49,365 nt of DNA from Xanthobacteraceae bacterium (lineage in GTDB: Bacteria > Pseudomonadota > Alphaproteobacteria > Rhizobiales > Xanthobacteraceae), in the NCBI GenBank assembly GCA_036270895.1, contig DATBBS010000609.1, forward strand, positions 1 through 49,365, in the 5' to 3' direction. Positions 4,229 to 40,789 of this stretch are shown piece by piece; within the stretch, counting starts at the first letter, position 1, and each line of letters opens with the position of its first letter. The position numbers were made by a program, and so were the translations under genes. The notes under the pieces are model-generated. The model was not told the origin of the DNA, did no database searches, and was given only the letters and a program-made list of their open reading frames with translations.

Positions 4229-5302
4229 ATGCCGGCCGACACGCCCTGGTGGGCGCCCCATGTCCATGCCGACCGCCGCCCCTTCCTCATGGGGCGCGCC
4301 CGCATCATGGCGGCGCTGCGGGCCTTTTTCGCGGCGCGCGACTTCATCGAGGTCGAGGCCGCCATCCTGCAGGTCTCGCCCGGAAACGAGGCCCATCTCC
4401 ATGCCTTCGCGACCGAGCTGGTGACGCCGGCCGCGCAGCATGCGCGCCTCTATCTCCATACGTCGCCCGAATTCGCCGCCAAGAAGCTGCTCGCGGCCGG
4501 CGAGCGCCGGATCTTCGAGTTCGCCCGCGTGTTTCGCAACCGCGAGCGCGGCGCGTTGCACCATCCCGAATTCACCCTGCTGGAATGGTACCGCGCAGAC
4601 GAGCCCTACGAGGCGGTGATGGATGACTGTGCGGCGCTGCTCGCCATTGCGGCGCGCGCGGCCGGGACCGAGCGGATCGCGTTTCGCGGGCGAACCGCCG
4701 ACCCGTTCGCAGCCCCGGAGCGCCTCACGGTGGCGGACGCCTTTTTGCGCTTCGCCGGCATCGATCTTCTCGCCACGCTCCGCGCCGCGGAAGACGCCCG
4801 CGAAGCCCCCCATGAGGGCGATCGCGACGCGCTCGCCGCGCAGGCGGCGGCGGCGGGCGTGCGCTGCACCGAGGACGACGGCTGGAGCGATATTTTCAGC
4901 CGCGTGTTGGTCGAGCGGATCGAGCCCAATCTGGGAATCGGCCGCGCCACCATCCTCGACGAATATCCCGCTGTCGAGGCCGCGCTGGCGCGCCCGAAAG
5001 CAGGCGATCCGCGCGTCGCCGAGCGCTTCGAGCTCTATGTCTGCGGAGTCGAGATCGCCAATGCGTTCGGCGAATTGACCGATGCGGCCGAGCAGCGCCG
5101 GCGCTTTGACGCCGAGATGGCCGAAAAGCAGCGCCGCTACGGCGAGCGCTATCCGGTCGACGAGGATTTCCTGGCCGCGCTCGGCCGCATGCCGCCCGCT
5201 TGCGGCAGCGCGCTCGGCTTCGACCGTCTGGTCATGCTGGTCACCGGCGCGAGCCGGATCGAGCAGGTGATCTGGACTCCGGTGGCGCTTCCGCCCGAAT
5301 AG
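4229..5302 (+). CDS. epmA: EF-P (R)-beta-lysine ligase, class II LysRS paralogue (EpmA/GenX/PoxA)
   Basis: 357 aa. It shows class II aaRS core motifs ([62 protein letters not shown]) and lacks an anticodon-binding domain. It is divergent from efp. Confidence 0.85.
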
Positions 5303-9733: not shown

Positions 9734-10246
9734 TCACCGGGGGCTCGCGCCGCCTGCCACCGGATGCCCGATGCCGAGCGGCGCGGCGTCGATCAACACG
9801 AAGGCGAGCCGCGCGCGTTCGGGCCCGCGATTGACCCAGGCGTGATGGGTGCCGCGCTGGACCATGACGTCGCCGGCCTTGAGGCGAACCGTGGACTTGT
9901 CCATGTCCATGTCGATCTCGCCCGAGATCACGATCACGTAGTCGACCGTCTCGGTGCGGTGCATGCGGCCGCTGTTGCCGGGCGGAAAGTCGATCACCGC
10001 AAAGCGCGTGCCGTTCGCGGGCGGCGCGGTGCCGAGCATGCGGGCGCCGAGATCCTCGATCGTCTCGCCGATCGAAATGTCGGCCGGCGTCGAATCGGTC
10101 GACCAGATCAGGGTCGACACCGTGCCGGGCGAGCCGGATTTCCAGTTGGCGGCCGGGCCGTCGGTGATCACCTTGGCGACCTGATGCGCGTCGTGCCCGG
10201 TGACGATGCGGCGGATCGGCGGATAGTCGGGCTTGTCGGAACACAT
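9734..10246 (-). CDS. cupin-domain protein
   Basis: Based on ORF 9734..10297, with a probable start at ATG 10246. The beta-barrel block FPPGNSGRMHRTETVDYVIVISGEIDMDMD..VRLKAGDVMVQRGTHHAW is typical of cupins. The specific function is unknown. Confidence 0.65.
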   Translation of the reverse strand: MCSDKPDYPPIRRIVTGHDAHQVAKVITDGPAANWKSGSPGTVSTLIWSTDSTPADISIGETIEDLGARMLGTAPPANGTRFAVIDFPPGNSGRMHRTETVDYVIVISGEIDMDMDKSTVRLKAGDVMVQRGTHHAWVNRGPERARLAFVLIDAAPLGIGHPVAGGASPR

Positions 10247-10449
10247 TGGGGGCACCCATTGTCGGTCGTGCGGCACGCGCCGAAACCTTGATAACACGAA
10301 CAGCCGCCATCAGACGCGAGTCATCCGCGGCTGCGTAGCGCCCGGATCTTCGCCGGCCGCGTGGGTCATCGCAGACGAGGCTCTTCCCGTCCGTGGCGGG
10401 TTGACGCTATACCGGGCCGGAACGCATCGCTCATCGAAAGGCCCTTGTT

Positions 10450-11892
10450 ATGAGCTCACAAGACCCGGGACTGCCGCTCAAGTCCGCGCACACGTCCGAC
10501 GTCACAATCCCGGGGGTGGGATCACTCGGCTTCCTCCTGTGCGTGCTGGTGCCGCTCGCCCTGTGGTTCGCACCGCTCGGCCTGGCGCCGCAGACCCAGC
10601 ACGGCCTGGCGATCGTGTGCTTCATGGTGGTGGCGTGGATGACGCAGGCCATGGAGTTCGCGCTCGCCGGCTTCGTCGGCTGCTTCCTGTTCTGGGCGCT
10701 CGGGGTCGTGCGTTTCCCCGTGGCATTCAGCGGCTTTGCGAACGACACGCCCTGGTTCCTGTTTGCCGCCTTGCTGCTCGGGCGCGTCGCCAGCAAGTCG
10801 GGCCTCGCCCGCCGGCTCGCCTATTCGGTGATGCTGCGGGTGGGCTCGACCTATTCCAGGATCCTGCTCGGCCTCATCATGACCGACTTCATCCTGACCT
10901 TCATCGTGCCGTCCGGGCTCGCGCGGGTCGCGATCCTCGCCACCATCTCGCTCGCCTTGATCGAGGCGTTTCAGGCGCAGAAGGGCAGCAACATCGCCCG
11001 CGGCATGTTCCTGATCATGACCTACACCGGCAACCTGTTCGACAAGATGATCCTGGCCGGCGCCGGCTCGATCACGGCGGCTGGCGCGATGGCGAAATTC
11101 GGCAATGTCGAGGTGTTGTGGGGCCAGTGGCTGCTCGCTTTCCTGCCCGCCAGCATCATCACGGTGCTGATCGCGTGGCGCCTGACCCTGTGGCTCTATC
11201 CGCCCGAGCAGGCGGCGCTGACCGGCGGCACGGATTTTTTCCGCGACGAGCTCGTCAAGATGGGTCCGTGGTCGTGGCTGGAGAAGAAGGCCGCGCTGCT
11301 CGTCGGCGTCGCCATCCTGCTGTGGGTCACCGACTTCCTGCATCATCTGCCGCCCGCGATGATCGCGCTCGGCGTCGGCCTGTTCGCGCTGCTGCCGCCC
11401 GTCGGCATTCTCGACGAAGACGACATGCGCAACGTGAACTACATGCCGGTCTTCTTCGTCGCCGCCGCCATCAGCATGGGGAACGTGCTCGAAGCCACCA
11501 AGGGCCTCGACGTGCTCACCACGGTGTTCCTTACCAGGGCCGAGCCCTTCCTCGGCAATATCTTCAGCACGACCTTCGTCATGTATTGGACGGGGTTCAT
11601 CTATCACTTCTTTCTCGCCAGCGAGATCTCGATGCTGGGCACGTCGATGCCCCTGGTGATGCAGTTCGCCAAGTCGCACGACATGAACGCGCTGATGCTC
11701 GGCCTGTTGTGGACCTTCTCGGCCGGCGGCAAGCTGTTCGCCTACCAGTCGGGCGTGCTGGTGCTGGGCTATTCCTACGGCTACTTCGAGGCCCGCGACC
11801 TCGTGCGCATCGGCGCGCTGCTCACCCTGGCGGAGTTCTTCATCCTGCTGCTGCTGGTGCCGTTCTACTGGCCGTTGATCGGGATTTATTGA
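10450..11892 (+). CDS. DASS/SLC13-type (ArsB/NhaD superfamily) anion permease
   Basis: 480 aa, with 12 or more hydrophobic segments. The internal repeat architecture and motifs resemble citrate/sulfate-type symporters. Its last 60 codons recur as a ghost copy at 14579-14755. Confidence 0.7.
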   Translation: MSSQDPGLPLKSAHTSDVTIPGVGSLGFLLCVLVPLALWFAPLGLAPQTQHGLAIVCFMVVAWMTQAMEFALAGFVGCFLFWALGVVRFPVAFSGFANDTPWFLFAALLLGRVASKSGLARRLAYSVMLRVGSTYSRILLGLIMTDFILTFIVPSGLARVAILATISLALIEAFQAQKGSNIARGMFLIMTYTGNLFDKMILAGAGSITAAGAMAKFGNVEVLWGQWLLAFLPASIITVLIAWRLTLWLYPPEQAALTGGTDFFRDELVKMGPWSWLEKKAALLVGVAILLWVTDFLHHLPPAMIALGVGLFALLPPVGILDEDDMRNVNYMPVFFVAAAISMGNVLEATKGLDVLTTVFLTRAEPFLGNIFSTTFVMYWTGFIYHFFLASEISMLGTSMPLVMQFAKSHDMNALMLGLLWTFSAGGKLFAYQSGVLVLGYSYGYFEARDLVRIGALLTLAEFFILLLLVPFYWPLIGIY

Positions 11893-11904
11893 GACGGGCC
11901 GGCT

Positions 11905-11979
11905 GTCATTGCGAGCGCAGCGAAGCAATCTCGCTGCCTCGGCAAGCGTAGCCCGGATGAAGCGAAGCGAAATCCGGGG
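11905..11979. repeat. REP-like elements, family A arm (11905-11930) plus family B unit (11943-11979)
   Basis: gtcattgcgagcgcagcgaagcaatc matches the arms at 304-387. caagcgtagcccggatgaagcgaagcgaaatccgggg matches 13477-13512. Confidence 0.8.
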
Positions 11980-12083
11980 CTGTTGGGTCGCGCAGGAACT
12001 CATCACCAACCCGGGACGATGGCATCCCCGCAATTTACAACCTGTATGGGTTTGCTGCTAAGCTATGGGGCGGGGGGAACGCC

Positions 12084-12830
12084 ATGGCAATAACACGCGA
12101 CGGCGCGTCGGCCGCTCCCGAGCCGCCGGCCGCAATGGTCGATCGGCCCGAATCGGTTGGTCGCTTGATACTTATTGCTATCGGTTGGTGGTTGCTGACT
12201 GAACTCGCCAGCGGGTTCCCAGTCGGCTTCGCGGTAGGCGTATTGAAACGCTTTCAGAACATTTCTCTGTTCGACCCGATCCCCGCTACCGTCATGGTGT
12301 TCTTGGCAGGTTGCACCCTGCTGATCGCGGTGCGCAAACGAAGCGTGGTGGTTGGACACGGCGATCGTCGCGCTGGTGTAGATGACAGGCCGATAACACG
12401 ATGGTGGCTTCTGGTCGTGCTTGCGGTTCTGGCGGCAGCGTGGGCTTTCGTTGCATCGGCCTTCTGGAATGGCGTGTTCCCTCAGTGGGTCTCAAACTGG
12501 CGCGGCGCAAGCCCGTGGACGCTGATAGCGTTCACGGTAGGGACAGTCATCTTAGCCCCATTTGCGGAAGAGCTCTTTTACAGAGGGTGGCTCTGGACAG
12601 GGGTCCGACAACATTGGCGCGCATTTCCGACCGCACTGTTGTCATGTGGCCTTTGGCTCCTCTCGCACATAGACCGCGGGCTCCTGGTGCCGATAATGCT
12701 TATTCCGACCGCAGTTATCCTGGGTTTCGCACGGCATTTTTGCGGAATCAGGGCGGCAATTATTTTGCATGGTATCTACAATCTTGTCGTCGTCCTCGTA
12801 TTGGGACTCCTGCTCACGCGAACGTCTTAG
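12084..12830 (+). CDS. CPBP-family intramembrane glutamic endopeptidase (CAAX protease/Abi family)
   Basis: 248 aa membrane protein carrying the diagnostic EELFYRG motif (APFAEELFYRGWLW), then LLSH and ILHGIYN histidine motifs. Its codons are visibly more AT-rich at third positions than those of neighbouring genes. Confidence 0.8.
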   Translation: MAITRDGASAAPEPPAAMVDRPESVGRLILIAIGWWLLTELASGFPVGFAVGVLKRFQNISLFDPIPATVMVFLAGCTLLIAVRKRSVVVGHGDRRAGVDDRPITRWWLLVVLAVLAAAWAFVASAFWNGVFPQWVSNWRGASPWTLIAFTVGTVILAPFAEELFYRGWLWTGVRQHWRAFPTALLSCGLWLLSHIDRGLLVPIMLIPTAVILGFARHFCGIRAAIILHGIYNLVVVLVLGLLLTRTS

Positions 12831-12981
12831 CAAACGTAGCCTGGATGGAGAGAACGCGACTTCGCCGGAGCCTTCCGCTTCCAATCGTTGGTCGCGGCCC
12901 TGCAATTCGGTTCAAGACGCGGCGGGGCCGCTCGCTGCCATTATGCTGGGCGACGATGCCGTCCCGAAGGACGATTGCTCC

Positions 12982-13485
12982 ATGACCAACATCCGCTCCT
13001 GCCGTGACAACGATCGCGAGGCCATCCTCGCGATCGTCAATGCCGCCGCCGAGGCCTACCGGGGTGTGATCCCGGCCGATCGGTGGCATGAGCCCTACAT
13101 GTCGCCGCACGAGCTCGACCGCGAGATCGCCGCGGGTGTCGTGTTCTCGGGCTATGAGGCGGGCGGCAGGCTCGCGGGCGTGATGGGCTTCCAGCCGGTG
13201 CGCGACGTCGATCTCATTCGTCACGCCTACATCCTGCCGAGCCACCAGAGGTGCGGCATTGGCGGCGCTCTGCTGGCGCATCTGCGGCAATCGAGCACGC
13301 GGCTTATCCTGGTCGGCACATGGGAAGCCGCGGATTGGGCGATCAGCTTCTACCGGCGGCACGGCTTCGAGCTGGTTGCGCCTGCGCGCAAGACCGTGCT
13401 CCTCAAGACTTACTGGAACATTCCTGATCGTCAGATCGAGGTTTCGGTGGTGCTGGAAAGCCCTCCCGCCGATGAGCAAGCGTAG
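12982..13485 (+). CDS. GNAT-family N-acetyltransferase
   Basis: Based on ORF 12769..13485, with the start at ATG 12982 (AAGGA upstream) and an alternative ATG at 12943. The acetyl-CoA motif region HQRCGIGGALLAHL and the FYRRHGF block are present. The final codons and the stop lie inside a REP unit. Confidence 0.75.
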   Translation: MTNIRSCRDNDREAILAIVNAAAEAYRGVIPADRWHEPYMSPHELDREIAAGVVFSGYEAGGRLAGVMGFQPVRDVDLIRHAYILPSHQRCGIGGALLAHLRQSSTRLILVGTWEAADWAISFYRRHGFELVAPARKTVLLKTYWNIPDRQIEVSVVLESPPADEQA

Positions 13486-13650
13486 CCCCGATGGAGCGCA
13501 GCGCAATCCGGGTTTCTCGCACGCAATAGACTACAGCCCCGGATTTCGCTTCCGCCTTCGCGCTCCGCGCTTCGGCGGACTCGCTCGCGCGGAACCCGCC
13601 GTAGCTCGCGAAGCGAGCGAAGGCGCGGTCGCTCCATCCGGGCTACGGTT
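13477..13650. repeat. composite REP cluster (family B units in both orientations plus an internal palindrome)
   Basis: caagcgtagccccgatggagcgcagcgcaatccggg (13477-13512) pairs with gtcgctccatccgggctac (13628-13646). An inverted unit gccccggatttcgcttc lies at about 13536-13552. An internal palindrome cgccttcgc..gcgaaggcg is also present. The cluster fills the gap between the convergent GNAT and hydrolase genes. Confidence 0.75.
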
Positions 13651-13653
13651 CTG

Positions 13654-14490
13654 CTACGGCGCCAGCCGTCGGGCGAAAAACGCCAGGATCTCGTCGCGGG
13701 CCGCGATGGTCGGCTGGCCGGCTTCGTCGATCAGGTGGGCGGTCACGACGCTGTGCGGGCACCTCACGTGCCGGGCGAAGAACGGCGCCACATCGGTGTT
13801 CGCCGCGCTGTCGGCAAGCACGCGCCCCACGAACCGGTCGCCCAGCGCCGCCGCGTAGGCGGAGAAGCGCTGCGCCCGGCAGAATTTGTCGCCCGCGAAG
13901 CGATAGGCCATCACCGTGAGGTCGTCGCGCTCGAGCCGGTCGCGGACCGCCTTGATGTCCTCGGGAGCGATCTCGATGCCGGCGGGGTCGTTGAGCGGCA
14001 GTGCGGGCTGGGAGAGGACCGGCGCCAGCATCGCGGGCTCCAGCATCATCGTGAGCGCGAAGTTTCCGGTGAAGCACATGCCGATGGCGCCCACGCCGGG
14101 GCCGCCGCACTCCTGGTGCGCGAGCCGTGCCAGCGCCCGCAGCCATTGCGTCACGGGGCTCGTCTGGTTGGCGGCGAGCGCGCGGAACTCGGCGCTGACG
14201 CACGCGCGCTGAAAAACAGCCATGCCTTCCTCGGCGCCCGGCACGGCGCCGTCGCGGCCGAACAGCGAGGGCATGTAGACCGAGAAGCCGGCGTCGCGGA
14301 CCCAGCGGGCAAAGCGCGCAACCTCCGGGCTGATGCCCGGCATCTCGGCCATGACGATCACCGCGGGTCCCGCGCCGCCGACGTAAACCCGCTTGGCCAC
14401 GCCATCGAGCGTGATGTCGCGCGCTGCGAAATCGTCGAGCGGATCGTCTTCCTTCACGCTGCGTTCCGGCATGGCGGTTGTCCGTTTCAT
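13654..14490 (-). CDS. dienelactone hydrolase-family protein
   Basis: Based on ORF 13654..14601, with the start at ATG 14490 (GGGAGA upstream). The nucleophile region GAIGMCFTGNFAL and the overall alpha/beta layout match DLH-family proteins. Confidence 0.7.
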   Translation of the reverse strand: MKRTTAMPERSVKEDDPLDDFAARDITLDGVAKRVYVGGAGPAVIVMAEMPGISPEVARFARWVRDAGFSVYMPSLFGRDGAVPGAEEGMAVFQRACVSAEFRALAANQTSPVTQWLRALARLAHQECGGPGVGAIGMCFTGNFALTMMLEPAMLAPVLSQPALPLNDPAGIEIAPEDIKAVRDRLERDDLTVMAYRFAGDKFCRAQRFSAYAAALGDRFVGRVLADSAANTDVAPFFARHVRCPHSVVTAHLIDEAGQPTIAARDEILAFFARRLAP

Positions 14491-14578
14491 CGTGGTCTCC
14501 CGCACCACACACACTCTCTCTTCCATTGGCGAACGCGGTCGGCATCGGGAGAAGCAGGTCCGCGAGGGTTTTCCTCCG

Positions 14579-14755
14579 TGGGCCTTTTCGGCCGGCGGCA
14601 AGCCGGTCGCCTGCCAATCGGACGCGCCGGTGCTGGGCTATTCCTACGGTTTCGAAGCCCGCGACCTCGTCCGCATCGGGGCATTGGTCCCGCCGGCGGA
14701 TTTTTTCATCCGGCTGCTGCTCGTTCCGTTCTACTGGCCCTTGATCGGGATCTAC
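14579..14755 (+). pseudogene. ghost copy of the 3' end (last 60 codons) of the DASS permease gene at 10450..11892
   Basis: The ghost reads WAFSAGGKPVACQSDAPVLGYSYGFEARDLVRIGALVPPADFFIRLLLVPFYWPLIGIY. The live copy reads WTFSAGGKLFAYQSGVLVLGYSYGYFEARDLVRIGALLTLAEFFILLLLVPFYWPLIGIY. By manual alignment 47 of 60 positions are identical, with one single-codon gap and no frameshift. The stop is lost (TAT TGA has become TAC CGA). Nothing transporter-like precedes the ghost. Confidence 0.85.
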
Positions 14756-14834
14756 CGAGGGAGGACGGCCGCCATGAGCCTATGCGGCTGTCCTTGAAGC
14801 GGAGGCCGCCAAGCCGGCCTCGCCCTGCCGACTG

Positions 14835-16439
14835 TCACTCCTTGCCGACCAGGGTCATGTCCAGGAACCACGACTGCGCGGACACGAAGCCGCGCACGCT
14901 CTTGCTCATCGCGCGCGGATTGAGATCGTGCACGATGAAAAGCCAGGGCGGGTTGTCGACCAGCCGTTCATGCGCGGCGCGATACGCGGTCTCGATCTTG
15001 GCTGCGTCGGTCGCCTCCGCCAGCGTGGCGAGCGCCTGGTCGAAGACGTCGTCCTTCCATTGCTCGAAATTGAATCCGTTGGGCGAAAAATTGGCCGACG
15101 AGAAGTAGCGCGCCATGATGCCGACGTCGGATGACGGGGAGGAAACGTTGAGCGCCATCGCGCCATGGAGCGCCGGATTGTCCGGCGGCTGCCGCACCGC
15201 AGTCAGCAGCACCTGCCATTCGACCACGTCGAACTCGATGTTCACGCCGCAGGCCTGCTTGAGGTTCTGCTGCAGATACTCGTTCATCGGCAGCGGCAGC
15301 ATTTGGCCCGAGCCGGAGGTGGAGATCATCACCTTCAGCGACAGGGGTTTTTGCGGCGTGAATCCAGCCTCCGCCAGAAGCGCCTTGCCCTTGGCGGGGT
15401 CGAAGCCGTAGCGCTGCGCCGGATTGCCGAAGCCGGCGTCGGTCGGCTTGAGCCAACCCACGGATGGCTCGGCCGTGCCGTTGAGCAAGGTCACGATCCC
15501 GGAGCGGTCGATGCAGTAGTTGAGCCCCTGGCGGACGCGCACGTCCTTCACCGGGCTGTTGGTGGCGCCGATGTTGAACATCCACGGCCAGGTGTGGGGA
15601 TAGGAATTGGTCACGAGGGTGAAGCCGGCGGCCTTCAGCGACGGAATGCCGTCGGCTGGCGGCACCTCGATCCAGTCGACCTGGCCCGAGCGCAGCGCCG
15701 CGAGCCGCGCATTCGCTTCCGGAATCGGGAGAAGCCGGATCACATCGACCTTCGCCTTGTGCGCCGCGTCCCAATAACCGTCGAAACGCGCCAGCTCGGC
15801 GGCTTCGCGCGGCACGACCTTGGAGATGCGGAACGGCCCGGTCCCGGCCGCCGGCAGCATCGCGACCTTGCCCCAGTCGCGGCCCGCCTTCTCGAACGAG
15901 GCCGGAGACGTGAACAGAATGTAGACCGCCATGTAGGGAAAATACGAAGCGGGCTGCTTGGTCTCGATCGCGACCGTGTAATCGTCGACCTTGCGATAAC
16001 CGGCCATGACCGGGACGCGCGCGCGCGTCATGCCGGACGCCGGCGGCTCGAATTGCGGGCTGTCACTCTTGAAGTAACGGTCGAGATTCCAGATCACCGC
16101 ATCGGCGTTGAAGTCCGTTCCGTCGTGAAACTTGACGCCGTGGCGCAGGTGGAAGATCCAGGTCTTCTTGTCGTCTGCCGACTGCTCGTAGCGCTCGGCA
16201 AGGCCCGGCCGCAAACCGGCGAGACGGTCGGCCCGCGACAAGTCCCACAGCACCAGACCCTCGAAGGCCGGATAGCCGAGGAAGCGCAAGCCCTCGAACC
16301 CATTGTTGGGCATGCCGGTGGTGGTCGGAATATCCGAGGCCGTCATGGCGATGCGGAGCGTCGTCTCGCCTCGAGCCGCAGACAGCGATGCGAGCGCACC
16401 AAGCACGGCGAAGGCGTAAGCGGCAGCACGGATCCTCAT
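14835..16439 (-). CDS. ABC transporter substrate-binding protein, family 5 (peptide/nickel, DppA/OppA-like)
   Basis: 534 aa with signal peptide MRIRAAAYAFAVLGALASLSAARG. It is a paralogue of 16781..18370, sharing blocks such as KFHDG..FNADAVIWNL and GTGPF. Confidence 0.85.
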   Translation of the reverse strand: MRIRAAAYAFAVLGALASLSAARGETTLRIAMTASDIPTTTGMPNNGFEGLRFLGYPAFEGLVLWDLSRADRLAGLRPGLAERYEQSADDKKTWIFHLRHGVKFHDGTDFNADAVIWNLDRYFKSDSPQFEPPASGMTRARVPVMAGYRKVDDYTVAIETKQPASYFPYMAVYILFTSPASFEKAGRDWGKVAMLPAAGTGPFRISKVVPREAAELARFDGYWDAAHKAKVDVIRLLPIPEANARLAALRSGQVDWIEVPPADGIPSLKAAGFTLVTNSYPHTWPWMFNIGATNSPVKDVRVRQGLNYCIDRSGIVTLLNGTAEPSVGWLKPTDAGFGNPAQRYGFDPAKGKALLAEAGFTPQKPLSLKVMISTSGSGQMLPLPMNEYLQQNLKQACGVNIEFDVVEWQVLLTAVRQPPDNPALHGAMALNVSSPSSDVGIMARYFSSANFSPNGFNFEQWKDDVFDQALATLAEATDAAKIETAYRAAHERLVDNPPWLFIVHDLNPRAMSKSVRGFVSAQSWFLDMTLVGKE

Positions 16440-40505: not shown

Positions 40506-40712
40506 ATGATGGCGGGTCCGAAGAGGGCTGCACGGCGGGGCACTGAGAGCGGCGGCGACCGCCGCGACCGCCTGCGCGCGCTCGCGCAGCGCGTCGAGAT
40601 CGACGCGAAAGAAGTTCGCATCATGGGATCGAAAAGCGTCCGGCTGCGCACGGTCGTCGCCGCCTCAAGCGCAAAAACGGCGGGTTTTGGCGTTCCTGGT
40701 ATTGTAACGAAA
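40506..40712 (+). pseudogene. probable C-terminal remnant of a recombinase (large-serine-recombinase-like tail) abutting the tRNA 3' end
   Basis: ORF 40506..40742 reads ..RDRLRALAQRVEIDAKEVRIMGSKSVRLRTVVAASSAKTAGFGVPGIVTKWRARRDSNS. Its last codons are the antisense of the tRNA acceptor/T arm. A TAG stop lies immediately upstream, and no catalytic domain is present. The family call is from memory of similar recombinase tails and has not been searched. Confidence 0.4.
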
Positions 40713-40789
40713 TGGCGCGCCCGAAGAGATTCGAACTCCTGACCCCCAGATTCGTAGTCTGGTGCTCTATCCAGCTGAGCTACGGGCGC
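40713..40789 (-). tRNA. tRNA-Arg (anticodon ACG), CCA encoded
   Basis: The reverse complement is GCGCCCGTAGCTCAGCTGGATAGAGCACCAGACTACGAATCTGGGGGTCAGGAGTTCGAATCTCTTCGGGCGCGCCA. It folds as a cloverleaf with a 7-bp acceptor stem, a D arm GCTC/GAGC, an anticodon stem CCAGA/TCTGG with loop CTACGAA, and a T loop TTCGAAT. Confidence 0.95.

Follow-up and report, generated by a model that had tools for sequence, protein, structure and literature searches.

The window analysed here, a 49,365-nt stretch of DNA from a Xanthobacteraceae bacterium, contains an intact gene for a DASS-family permease on its forward strand (positions 10450..11892, 480 aa). The product is a full-length match to the Pfam family Na_sulph_symp (PF00939, residues 28-479, 1.6e-52), and the gene shows a dN/dS of 0.14 against its orthologue in L027, one of the loci fetched from other contigs for comparison (designated by L numbers hereafter). 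It faces a convergent gene for a peptide-type ABC substrate-binding protein (SBP; SBP_bac_5 by Pfam) at 14835..16439 on the reverse strand. A sequence-only reading of the window had reported that the 3' end of the permease gene recurs between these two genes in the same orientation, and this survived formal alignment: a local nucleotide alignment matched positions 11709-11909 to 14578-14775 with 165 of 201 columns identical (82%) and one 3-nt gap. The same pair was found again in a separate repeat search of the window (families D1 and D2). The repeat had been located correctly but ended too early, since it runs ~17 nt past the stop codon (to 11909 and 14775). The first copy (11709..11909, forward strand), referred to as the live end or X, comprises the final 183 coding nucleotides, followed by the stop codon and by a 17-nt tail that closes with ...GTCAT. 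The second (14578..14775, forward strand), referred to as the ghost or X', is an orphan that lies downstream of the intact gene and also carries a 17-nt tail, ending in ...GCCAT. The similarity between the two is not due to chance, because the ghost alone matches the permease 3' ends of unrelated contigs (BLASTN E down to ~1e-56).

Every difference between the live end and the clade falls at a third codon position or a non-coding site. The ghost reads in frame, with one codon missing, no internal stop codon and the stop itself changed from TGA to CGA, just as the earlier reading had described. The 14 non-synonymous and 14 synonymous codon differences that separate the two ends over 61 codons agree with its manual count of 47 identical residues out of 60. 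The further argument that the preserved frame shows both ends to have diverged while functional is not supported, because the changes private to the ghost are typical of neutral decay, which would amount to ~7% change. These changes number 14, counting the 3-nt deletion and the TGA to CGA change; by codon position there are eight at position 2, six at position 1 and four at position 3, and these 18 include three from the deletion (two at position 1 and one at position 3). Four are Leu to Pro changes, and the dN/dS of the ghost against L095 is ~0.9. In GC-rich DNA, one 3-nt indel and a frame free of stop codons are nothing unusual, and the earlier divergence between the live end and the ghost is visible only at synonymous sites. 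The ghost is also usable as a small neutral-evolution probe; a strong AT to GC bias was observed among its private substitutions.

The ghost is followed by a spacer (14776..14834) that aligns with L029 and contains two predicted hairpins, with a fold z-score of only -1.8. In L029, L038 and L095, the permease end directly joins the spacer and the SBP gene that are found after the ghost in the window, and these loci thus represent the islet-free empty sites whose existence had been anticipated. Because their permease ends are collinear with the ghost and its downstream sequence, the ghost corresponds to the resident, native 3' end. The same loci bear on the idea of a former second, full-length permease gene downstream, reduced by deletion to its last 183 nt. 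Two permease homologues are indeed present in the fetched region of some distant loci (L015-L018 and L020), but the close relatives L027, L029, L038, L084, L095 and L001 contain no second copy, and their single permease end occupies exactly the position of the ghost relative to the spacer and the SBP gene. As no relative carries a tandem paralogue at this position, in line with the earlier reading, we consider this explanation extremely improbable.

The affinities of the two ends differ among the relatives. With private changes removed, the ghost differs at 137 coding sites by 4 from L095, 8 from L027, 11 from L029, 13 from the live end and 15 from L114; the live end is nearest to L029 (9 differences) and L114 (10). 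The live end and L095 disagree at 22 sites; at 17 of these the ghost agrees with L095 and at the other 5 with the live end (binomial p ~0.02). The dS is 0.11 between the ghost and L095 and 0.45 between the ghost and the live end, compared with whole-gene values of 0.20-0.24 for the window versus L027 or L095. Over the ~50 codons and 20 tail positions (~170 nt) that this comparison covers, the differences indicate that the live end and the ghost come from different allelic lineages, as had been proposed.

The allelic pattern is also what weighs on an origin of the ghost by duplication in situ. In that case, the cargo would have been inserted with a target duplication of ~200 bp, either when a circular intermediate with X of the same lineage integrated by a Campbell-type single crossover or through replication template switching. 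The two copies would have been identical at first; the ghost would then have decayed, and the live end would later have been overwritten by homologous recombination with a different allele. The identity along the permease gene is mosaic between lineages, indicating frequent allelic recombination, so that a live end exchanged afterwards by homologous recombination could mimic the allelic pattern. This course roughly fits the total numbers of changes, and at positions 11742 and 11745 the ghost agrees with the live end and L114, not with L095. However, the ghost without its private changes is three-fold nearer to L095 than to the live end, and the dS between the two ends exceeds the between-lineage values for the whole gene, to which the ghost's own neutral decay would add only ~0.1. 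Because these allelic distances and dS values are otherwise unexplained, duplication in situ needs an extra recombination event, and it is distinctly unlikely.

The DNA between the two ends is modular. REP elements are present at every module junction, and the islet contains every one of the four REP-B copies found in the 49-kb window. At the left cargo edge, a palindromic REP-A repeat (CATTGCGAGCGCAGCGAAGCAATC...; 11907..11936, forward strand), one of two copies in the window, begins with three bases (CAT) that double as the last three bases of X and are thus common to the tail and REP-A. It is followed by REP-B copy 1 (GCAAGCGTAGCCCGGATGAAGCG...; 11942..11983, forward strand) and a CPBP (Rce1-like) module (12002..12833, gene 12084-12830, forward strand). 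Immediately after the CPBP stop codon lies a degenerate REP-B copy 2 (12830..12866, forward strand) that is also present in L114 and L124. A motif designated R (GCAATTCGGTTCAAGACGCGGCGG; 12902..12925, forward strand) precedes a GNAT acetyltransferase module (12982..13485, forward strand; homology to orthologues over 12902-13465), the stop codon of which is supplied by REP-B copy 3. This copy (forward strand) and copy 4 (reverse strand) belong to a REP cluster at 13476..13661. A dienelactone hydrolase (DLH) module then occupies 13654..14496 on the reverse strand, with a start codon at 14496 or 14472, and the 81-nt stretch upstream of it (14497..14577) ends at a putative illegitimate junction with the ghost, placed at 14577/14578. 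No match to this 81-nt stretch was found in any fetched locus, and the donor sequence beyond it was likewise not found there.

Pfam confirmed the earlier assignment of the three intervening genes. The AT-richer codons that had been noted in CPBP were borne out, and this module is compositionally foreign (GC3 of 0.635, compared with 0.84-0.93 in the flanking genes); GNAT (0.815) and DLH (0.90) look native. Homology of the CPBP module to L111, L112/L113 and L115-L123 is limited to 12002..12833, and the contexts of these loci differ from that in the window. The usual neighbourhood of the GNAT gene is SnoaL-BenE-AraC-GNAT-cupin, and DLH orthologues are found in at least four other contexts, with homology limited to ~13638-14486. 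The cargo is not a single element, because CPBP, GNAT and DLH are each found alone elsewhere and the sets present in L114 and L124 differ. Motif R occurs twice in L125, upstream of BenE and upstream of GNAT, and in L114 it stands upstream of an AraC-type gene; this arrangement marks it as the place where an R x R deletion probably took out BenE-AraC.

One of the two footprints offered in the sequence-only reading was that of an element that integrates into the 3' end of the permease gene and brings a replacement end. The recombinase and most of the content of such an element would have since been deleted. In its favour, direct repeats of the gene's 3' end do bracket the insert, and the imported end leaves the gene intact; moreover, deletional erosion of the cargo is documented at this locus, and the repeat contains exact-match runs of 14-21 nt, in which the decay of the ghost obscures any strand-exchange core. 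However, recombinase, integrase, resolvase and transposase domains were all absent from the three islet ORFs (Pfam detected Rce1-like, GNAT and DLH only), and no recombinase or transposase gene was present among the Pfam hits of the genes called across positions ~450-26,400, which bears out the earlier statement that no recombinase is present. No phage or plasmid matches were found except for DLH homologues. The cargo consists of native-type Bradyrhizobium genes that are separate elsewhere, and unrelated cargo (ogt) is inserted at the same site in L027 and L084 without a ghost. The remnant of a site-specific integrative element is thus a very unlikely source of the islet.

Comparison across relatives revealed at least five different contents between the permease and SBP genes, enclosed by fixed core flanks, namely the 17 nt after the permease stop codon and the SBP stop codon. 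The latter bounds the variable region on the right in all haplotypes, and the boundary sequence at this stop codon, TCACTCCTTGC, is common to L027, L029, L038, L084, L095 and L124. In L114, which represents an independent lineage, the permease end, the 17-nt tail, REP-A, REP-B and CPBP are joined as in the window, with 86% identity over 1.2 kb, and the AraC-type gene follows CPBP; this contig is only 1.8 kb long and ends before any ghost position could show. The live-end tail GNCGGGCCGGCYGTCAT is common to both loci, with differences at 2 of 20 tail positions. The L114 arrangement lends support to the earlier proposal that one of the two ends arrived linked to the inserted DNA. Four independent junctions, i.e. 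REP-CPBP in the window and L114, ogt in L027 and in L084, and a deletion in L038, lie within 1-2 nt of '...CCAT' atop the permease terminator hairpin. Within this Bradyrhizobium-like clade, the permease-SBP gap is a recombination site and is hypervariable.

The sister contig L124 is 98.7% identical to the window over CPBP-GNAT and contains neither DLH nor the ghost; it joins the SBP stop codon after GNAT, and the identity falls to 90.5% exactly at the GNAT/SBP boundary, although six private changes in the SBP end of the window partly explain the latter figure. The native 3' flank of GNAT is kept in L124 and lost in the window, which means that more than one event is needed. These features could reflect transfer in the opposite direction, in which DLH, the 81-nt stretch and a permease remnant, anchored on the SBP side, entered an L124-like haplotype (permease-CPBP-GNAT-SBP), the permease having previously been truncated in another lineage with its remnant left beside the SBP gene. 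Decay of the permease by deletion is known in the clade: the 5' 243 nt and the segment corresponding to 11134-11736 are missing in L095, and 144 nt are missing in L084. Furthermore, the remnant in L095, which is the closest allele to the ghost, starts 28 nt from the start of the ghost. This direction requires at least two illegitimate joins, however, and no contig was found in which DLH stands beside a permease remnant while an intact permease is missing. We regard it as unlikely.

The reading that we prefer, to which we assign a probability of roughly 0.55, is that a homologous crossover combined with an illegitimate one displaced the permease 3' end at this hypervariable site between convergent genes and that the cargo eroded afterwards; both the one-sided mechanism and the direction of transfer are what we infer from the comparisons described above. 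It corresponds to the second footprint suggested in the sequence-only reading, that of recombination with its anchor in the permease gene. In the incoming haplotype, REPs and cargo (CPBP and more) would have followed that haplotype's own permease 3' end, beginning 17 nt beyond the stop codon. A homologous crossover would have taken place within or to the left of the permease gene, and a second, illegitimate crossover 183 nt before the stop codon of the resident end. These two crossovers would have left the permease gene with an intact imported end and moved the resident end 2.7 kb downstream, where it would have lost its stop codon and decayed neutrally. Deletions and REP-associated rearrangements, including the R x R loss of BenE-AraC, may then have reshaped the cargo, and the locus illustrates later cargo erosion through short-repeat deletions. 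Against this reading, natural transformation is not known to have been documented in this group. The site might instead serve as a recombinase-independent or REP/RAYT-dependent exchange point for single-gene cassettes, a highly improbable proposal. It would draw on the four junctions near '...CCAT', on the REP-B copies at the module junctions and on the movement of each cargo gene as a gene-sized module. If hairpin- or REP-directed cleavage assembled arrays of gene-sized modules, this would amount to a gene-shuffling system that resembles integrons and works without an integrase.

Chromosomal integration hotspots and REP/BIME-rich intergenic regions lie between conserved genes. The present locus resembles them in its fixed core flanks, its at least five contents and the REPs at its module junctions, and differs in its displaced gene end, which typical descriptions of such regions do not include. 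The REPs may cause rearrangements here or merely accumulate.

Hill et al. in 1989 and Campbell et al. in 1992 are said to have described a phage-borne duplicated replacement 3' end at the icd gene. As with phage 21 and e14, the inserted DNA here would supply the live 3' end and leave the gene uninterrupted, with an in-frame pseudo-3'-end of similar length (~165-200 nt) downstream. The icd gene of E. coli is the attachment site for phage 21 and e14 (PMC12803456). These are coherent prophages with integrase-mediated integration, whereas the islet is a mosaic of independently distributed genes with no recombinase, and in other lineages this spot is occupied by different cargo.

In rhs, CDI and T6SS effector loci, 3'-end displacement has been attributed to homology-facilitated illegitimate recombination (Jackson et al. 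2009; de Vries & Wackernagel 2002; both as cited by Kirchberger et al. 2017, PMC5361080). Compared with these loci as that account presents them, the host gene here is an ordinary DASS transporter without immunity-gene logic, there is one orphan end, both ends are alleles of one sequence, unlike the toxin domains, and the cargo consists of unrelated housekeeping-type genes with REPs between them. As in those loci, the working 3' end would have been swapped for that of an incoming module anchored by 5' homology, the old 3' end is a downstream orphan in the same orientation, alternative haplotypes exist and no integrase is involved. The locus exemplifies known processes clearly but in an ordinary way, and it leaves the current understanding unchanged. 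It provides a clean natural case in which metagenome relatives supply the empty site, a haplotype of donor type and sister haplotypes, and it suggests that displacement of 3' ends extends beyond polymorphic-toxin loci and prophage att sites to an ordinary transporter gene, in this case in soil Bradyrhizobium-like bacteria.

A local alignment upheld the resemblance, first seen by eye, between the end of the intact DASS permease gene (the live end) and its displaced second copy (the ghost): positions 11709-11909 and 14578-14775 are identical at 165 of 201 columns (82%) with a single 3-nt gap, and a repeat search found the same pair again (families D1 and D2). The permease gene (10450 to 11892; 480 aa; PF00939 Na_sulph_symp, 1.6e-52) provides its final 183 nt and stop codon to the first repeat copy, which extends for a further 17 nt. 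The ghost keeps the permease frame with one codon absent and no internal stop, and its TGA has become CGA. Over 61 codons, the two copies show 14 synonymous and 14 non-synonymous codon differences. When the ghost alone was used as a query, E-values of down to ~1e-56 were obtained against permease 3' ends on unrelated contigs, which excludes chance as the source of the similarity. The JGI pipeline predicts a 108-aa gene without a Pfam match over the ghost (14471-14797, plus strand), which is almost certainly a spurious ORF derived from the decayed permease end by read-through past the lost stop.

The window belongs to a 150-kb JGI soil-metagenome contig. Scanning the GTDB genomes with the permease as query yielded no relative above 88% amino acid identity. 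The best match, locus L001, has the upstream genes in common with the window and not the downstream genes, the DNA past its permease being unrelated, and an extra ~5.3 kb separates its permease from the cupin gene (L001 4617-9925, with three minus-strand ORFs of 743, 384 and 481 aa); the left side of the permease is therefore variable too. A metagenome scan yielded closer relatives. Exact-protein matches of the permease and of the convergent SBP_bac_5 gene (SBP; 14835-16439, minus strand) were confined to the window's own contig and one sibling contig with an identical arrangement.

BLASTN of the window against the metagenome relatives, together with junction alignment, revealed islet-free empty sites at three loci. 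In L029 and L038, the permease 3' end is followed by a spacer of at most ~75 nt and then by the SBP_bac_5 stop codon, collinear with the ghost and the DNA downstream of it. L095 has the same type of layout, and its permease is a deletion-riddled pseudogene. It is thus the ghost, not the live copy, that is collinear with the permease end in all three loci. Because, in addition, no second permease copy is present in any close relative, the ghost stands where the permease 3' end natively lies. None of the three outcomes named beforehand as refuting the sequence-only reading was seen. A tandem paralogue followed by deletion is contradicted by these empty sites and is an extremely improbable origin of the repeat.

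The permease itself varies within the clade. In L095 (1-1143, corresponding to window 9767-11893), one deletion (window 10307-10692) has removed the promoter and 243 nt from the start of the gene, and a second corresponds to window 11134-11736; the 3' remnant of this allele, the closest to the ghost, starts 28 nt from the ghost's start. L084 shows a 144-nt in-frame gap (L084 2433-2435, window 11149-11292), which may reflect genuine loss or faulty assembly. Identity to single relatives jumps along the gene (window 10380-11900 versus L028, L038 and others), as in L028, which is 95-98% identical to the window at 10800-10980 and 79-83% at 11040-11220. Such jumps in the alignments indicate that alleles recombine frequently within the clade.

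Changes in the two ends were polarised using L095, L027, L084, L029 and L038 as references. The ghost-only deviations number 6, 8 and 4 at the first, second and third codon positions, respectively, with the 3-nt deletion accounting for 3 of the 18. The private changes of the ghost include four Leu to Pro, one Leu to Arg and one Gly to Asp replacement in predicted membrane helices, and the stop codon is lost. The deviations of the live copy from the clade all lie at third positions or non-coding sites, and the dN/dS of the whole gene against L027 is 0.14. These patterns indicate unconstrained decay of the ghost and purifying selection on the live end. The 14 private substitutions of the ghost (AT to GC, 10; GC to AT, 2; C-G exchanges, 2; CTG to CCG occurring four times) are strongly GC-ward, in non-functional DNA with a GC content of ~65%. 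The usual bacterial mutation bias runs in the opposite direction, and this small sample (n=14) hints at GC-biased fixation.

To compare alleles, the ghost's 13 private coding positions were excluded, leaving 137 coding columns (11740 to 11889). The ghost and the live end differ from each other at 13 of these; they differ from L095 at 4 and 15, from L027 and L084 at 8 and 12, from L029 at 11 and 9, from L038 at 11 and 12, and from L114 (a 1.8-kb contig of JGI 3300082206 carrying CPBP) at 15 and 10 columns, respectively. The 17-nt tail places the live end beside L114 (GNCGGGCCGGCYGTCAT), and that of the ghost is of the empty-site type (GRAMGGCCGCCAT). Of 22 sites that differ between the live end and L095, the ghost agrees with L095 at 17 and with the live end at 5 (binomial p ~0.02). 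By the Nei-Gojobori method, applied over ~50 codons for the ghost comparisons, ghost and L095 show a dS of 0.11 and a dN of 0.10 (neutral); dS between ghost and live end is 0.45, and the whole-gene dS of the window versus L027 or L095 is 0.20-0.24. A recent in-situ duplication predicts a ghost that is closest to the live end, which these figures contradict, and the two ends are different alleles. An in-situ duplication would require that another allele later overwrote the live end, which we regard as unlikely. At two polymorphic sites (11742, 11745), there was a hint, not significant, of the within-repeat chimeric pattern of a single Campbell-type crossover. The sequence-only reading had proposed that the ends diverged while both were functional, on the ground that the frame is preserved. 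That argument fails, because a 3-nt indel and the lack of a new stop are unremarkable in GC-rich DNA. The proposal itself is supported by the synonymous-site patterns, in a small sample of ~50 codons, and one allele then decayed by ~7-10% per site.

Three genes lie between the repeat copies: an Rce1-like/CPBP gene (12084-12830), a GNAT gene (12982-13485) and a dienelactone hydrolase (DLH) gene (13654-14496, minus strand). CPBP alone is compositionally odd, its AT-richness being borne out by a GC3 of 0.635 versus 0.84-0.93 in the flanks (GNAT, 0.815; DLH, 0.90). It is also rare (42 database matches), and its homology to other contigs is limited to 12002-12833, in unrelated contexts (L111, L112/L113, L115-L123); nine contigs with identical CPBP, considered as several contexts, proved to be all one locus. 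The exception is L114, a contig collinear with the window from 11719 to 12925 (86% identity). It contains, in order, the permease end, a 17-nt tail shared with the window, the palindromic repeats REP-A and REP-B, CPBP and a degenerate REP, and where the window has GNAT it has a gene for an AraC-type regulator. GNAT is a common Bradyrhizobium-type gene usually found in a SnoaL-BenE-AraC-GNAT-cupin neighbourhood (L125-L128). A 24-nt motif, GCAATTCNGTTCAAGACGCGGCGG (window 12902-12925), precedes both BenE and GNAT in L125 (~2610-2665 and 4921-4960) and the AraC-type gene in L114 (1179-1233). A probable operator of the AraC-type regulator, the motif appears to have supplied short direct repeats at which deletions occurred; from its placement in L125 and L114, the window looks like the product of a deletion between two motif copies in which BenE and AraC were lost.

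DLH is common (thousands of matches, the closest at 84-91% identity), and its homology stops at the gene borders (~13638-14486) in at least four other contexts (L107-L110, L129, L130). The 81-nt stretch that separates DLH from the ghost matched no fetched locus. In L107 (4632-6203 and 11413-11489), a partial 3' copy of tRNA-Arg(ACG), ~700 nt away from a DLH orthologue, adjoins a tyrosine integrase, an HTH_17 protein and a resolvase, with the full tRNA-Arg 5 kb beyond; this arrangement resembles that of an integrase island at tRNA-Arg. No such island was found at the window's tRNA-Arg (40713-40789) in the part compared (40643-40789). This is the window's sole tRNA gene, with none close to the islet. 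Gene calls covering ~450-26,400 contained no integrase, resolvase or transposase domain, in agreement with the sequence-only reading. No Rfam match was found in 11500-15000 at E<=1, a promoter/terminator consensus scan gave no signal above shuffled expectation, and the whole islet retrieved from a plasmid collection only distant DLH homologues on chromids. Judged by the contexts of its modules, the cargo is a mosaic and no single element. An integrase-borne element since stripped of its recombinase is therefore a very unlikely source of the islet.

The site has also received other inserts. In L027 and L084, ~530 nt with a minus-strand gene for an Ogt-like methylated-DNA-protein-cysteine methyltransferase (PCHRV motif; L027 5480-6010, L084 3060-3582) lie between permease and SBP, directly after '...GCCGCCAT' at the permease 3' end, where the window's cargo also starts; L027 has an additional ~90-nt insert carrying a second GCCGCCAT. 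Comparison of haplotypes thus gives at least five different contents at this single site, with the right edge fixed at the SBP stop codon and the left recurring 17 nt past the permease stop. Four independent junctions fall within 1-2 nt of one loop position. The REP 'GTAGCCCGGATGRAGCG' occurs four times in the 49-kb window (11948, 12836, 13482 and 13630), always inside the 2.7-kb islet and once per module junction, one copy providing the GNAT stop codon. The same-loop junctions and this concentration of REPs prompted the idea of a hairpin- or REP-directed cassette-exchange site, which we consider highly improbable.

The best-supported reading, to which we assign a probability of roughly 0.55, is displacement of the 3' end at a recombination hotspot. 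A haplotype with a permease end joined to REP, CPBP and more would have recombined with an empty-site haplotype, with one homologous crossover within or left of the permease gene and one illegitimate join landing 183 nt before the stop codon of the resident gene. With an imported end the gene would have stayed intact, the resident end becoming the ghost, and the cargo would later have been trimmed by deletions and REP-linked rearrangements. The data establish the repeat, the empty sites, the decay, the allelic affinities of the ends, the mosaic cargo and the alternative haplotypes; the types of crossover and the direction of transfer are inferred. The same mechanism may have run in the reverse direction, a DLH-remnant-SBP block being imported into a haplotype like L124. 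This 975-nt contig of JGI 3300036794, a sample number near the window's, is 98.7% identical to window 12648-13475 (the 3' part of CPBP, and GNAT); past GNAT, 31 nt of the gene's native 3' flank lead directly into the SBP stop codon, where identity falls to 90.5%. The layout of L124 marks it as a sister haplotype without REP cluster, DLH, ghost and spacer, and the fall in identity marks a recombination breakpoint at that boundary. This discontinuity, the native GNAT flank and the permease decay known within the clade all support the reverse direction, which we consider unlikely.

The displacement that we favour can be compared with two families of known systems, between which the sequence-only reading had left the choice. 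At icd, phage 21 and e14 leave a duplicated replacement end, and the footprint in the window is similar. The icd gene serves as the attachment site of both (PMC12803456). The window departs from this integrase-type family in two defining respects, as it has no recombinase among the genes called and its insert does not form one coherent unit. At rhs, CDI and T6SS loci, C-terminal displacement leaves orphaned 3' regions and has been ascribed to homology-facilitated illegitimate recombination (Kirchberger et al., PMC5361080), and the window, with its live end and orphaned 3' region, matches that footprint. Every feature of this latter family that could be tested holds here.
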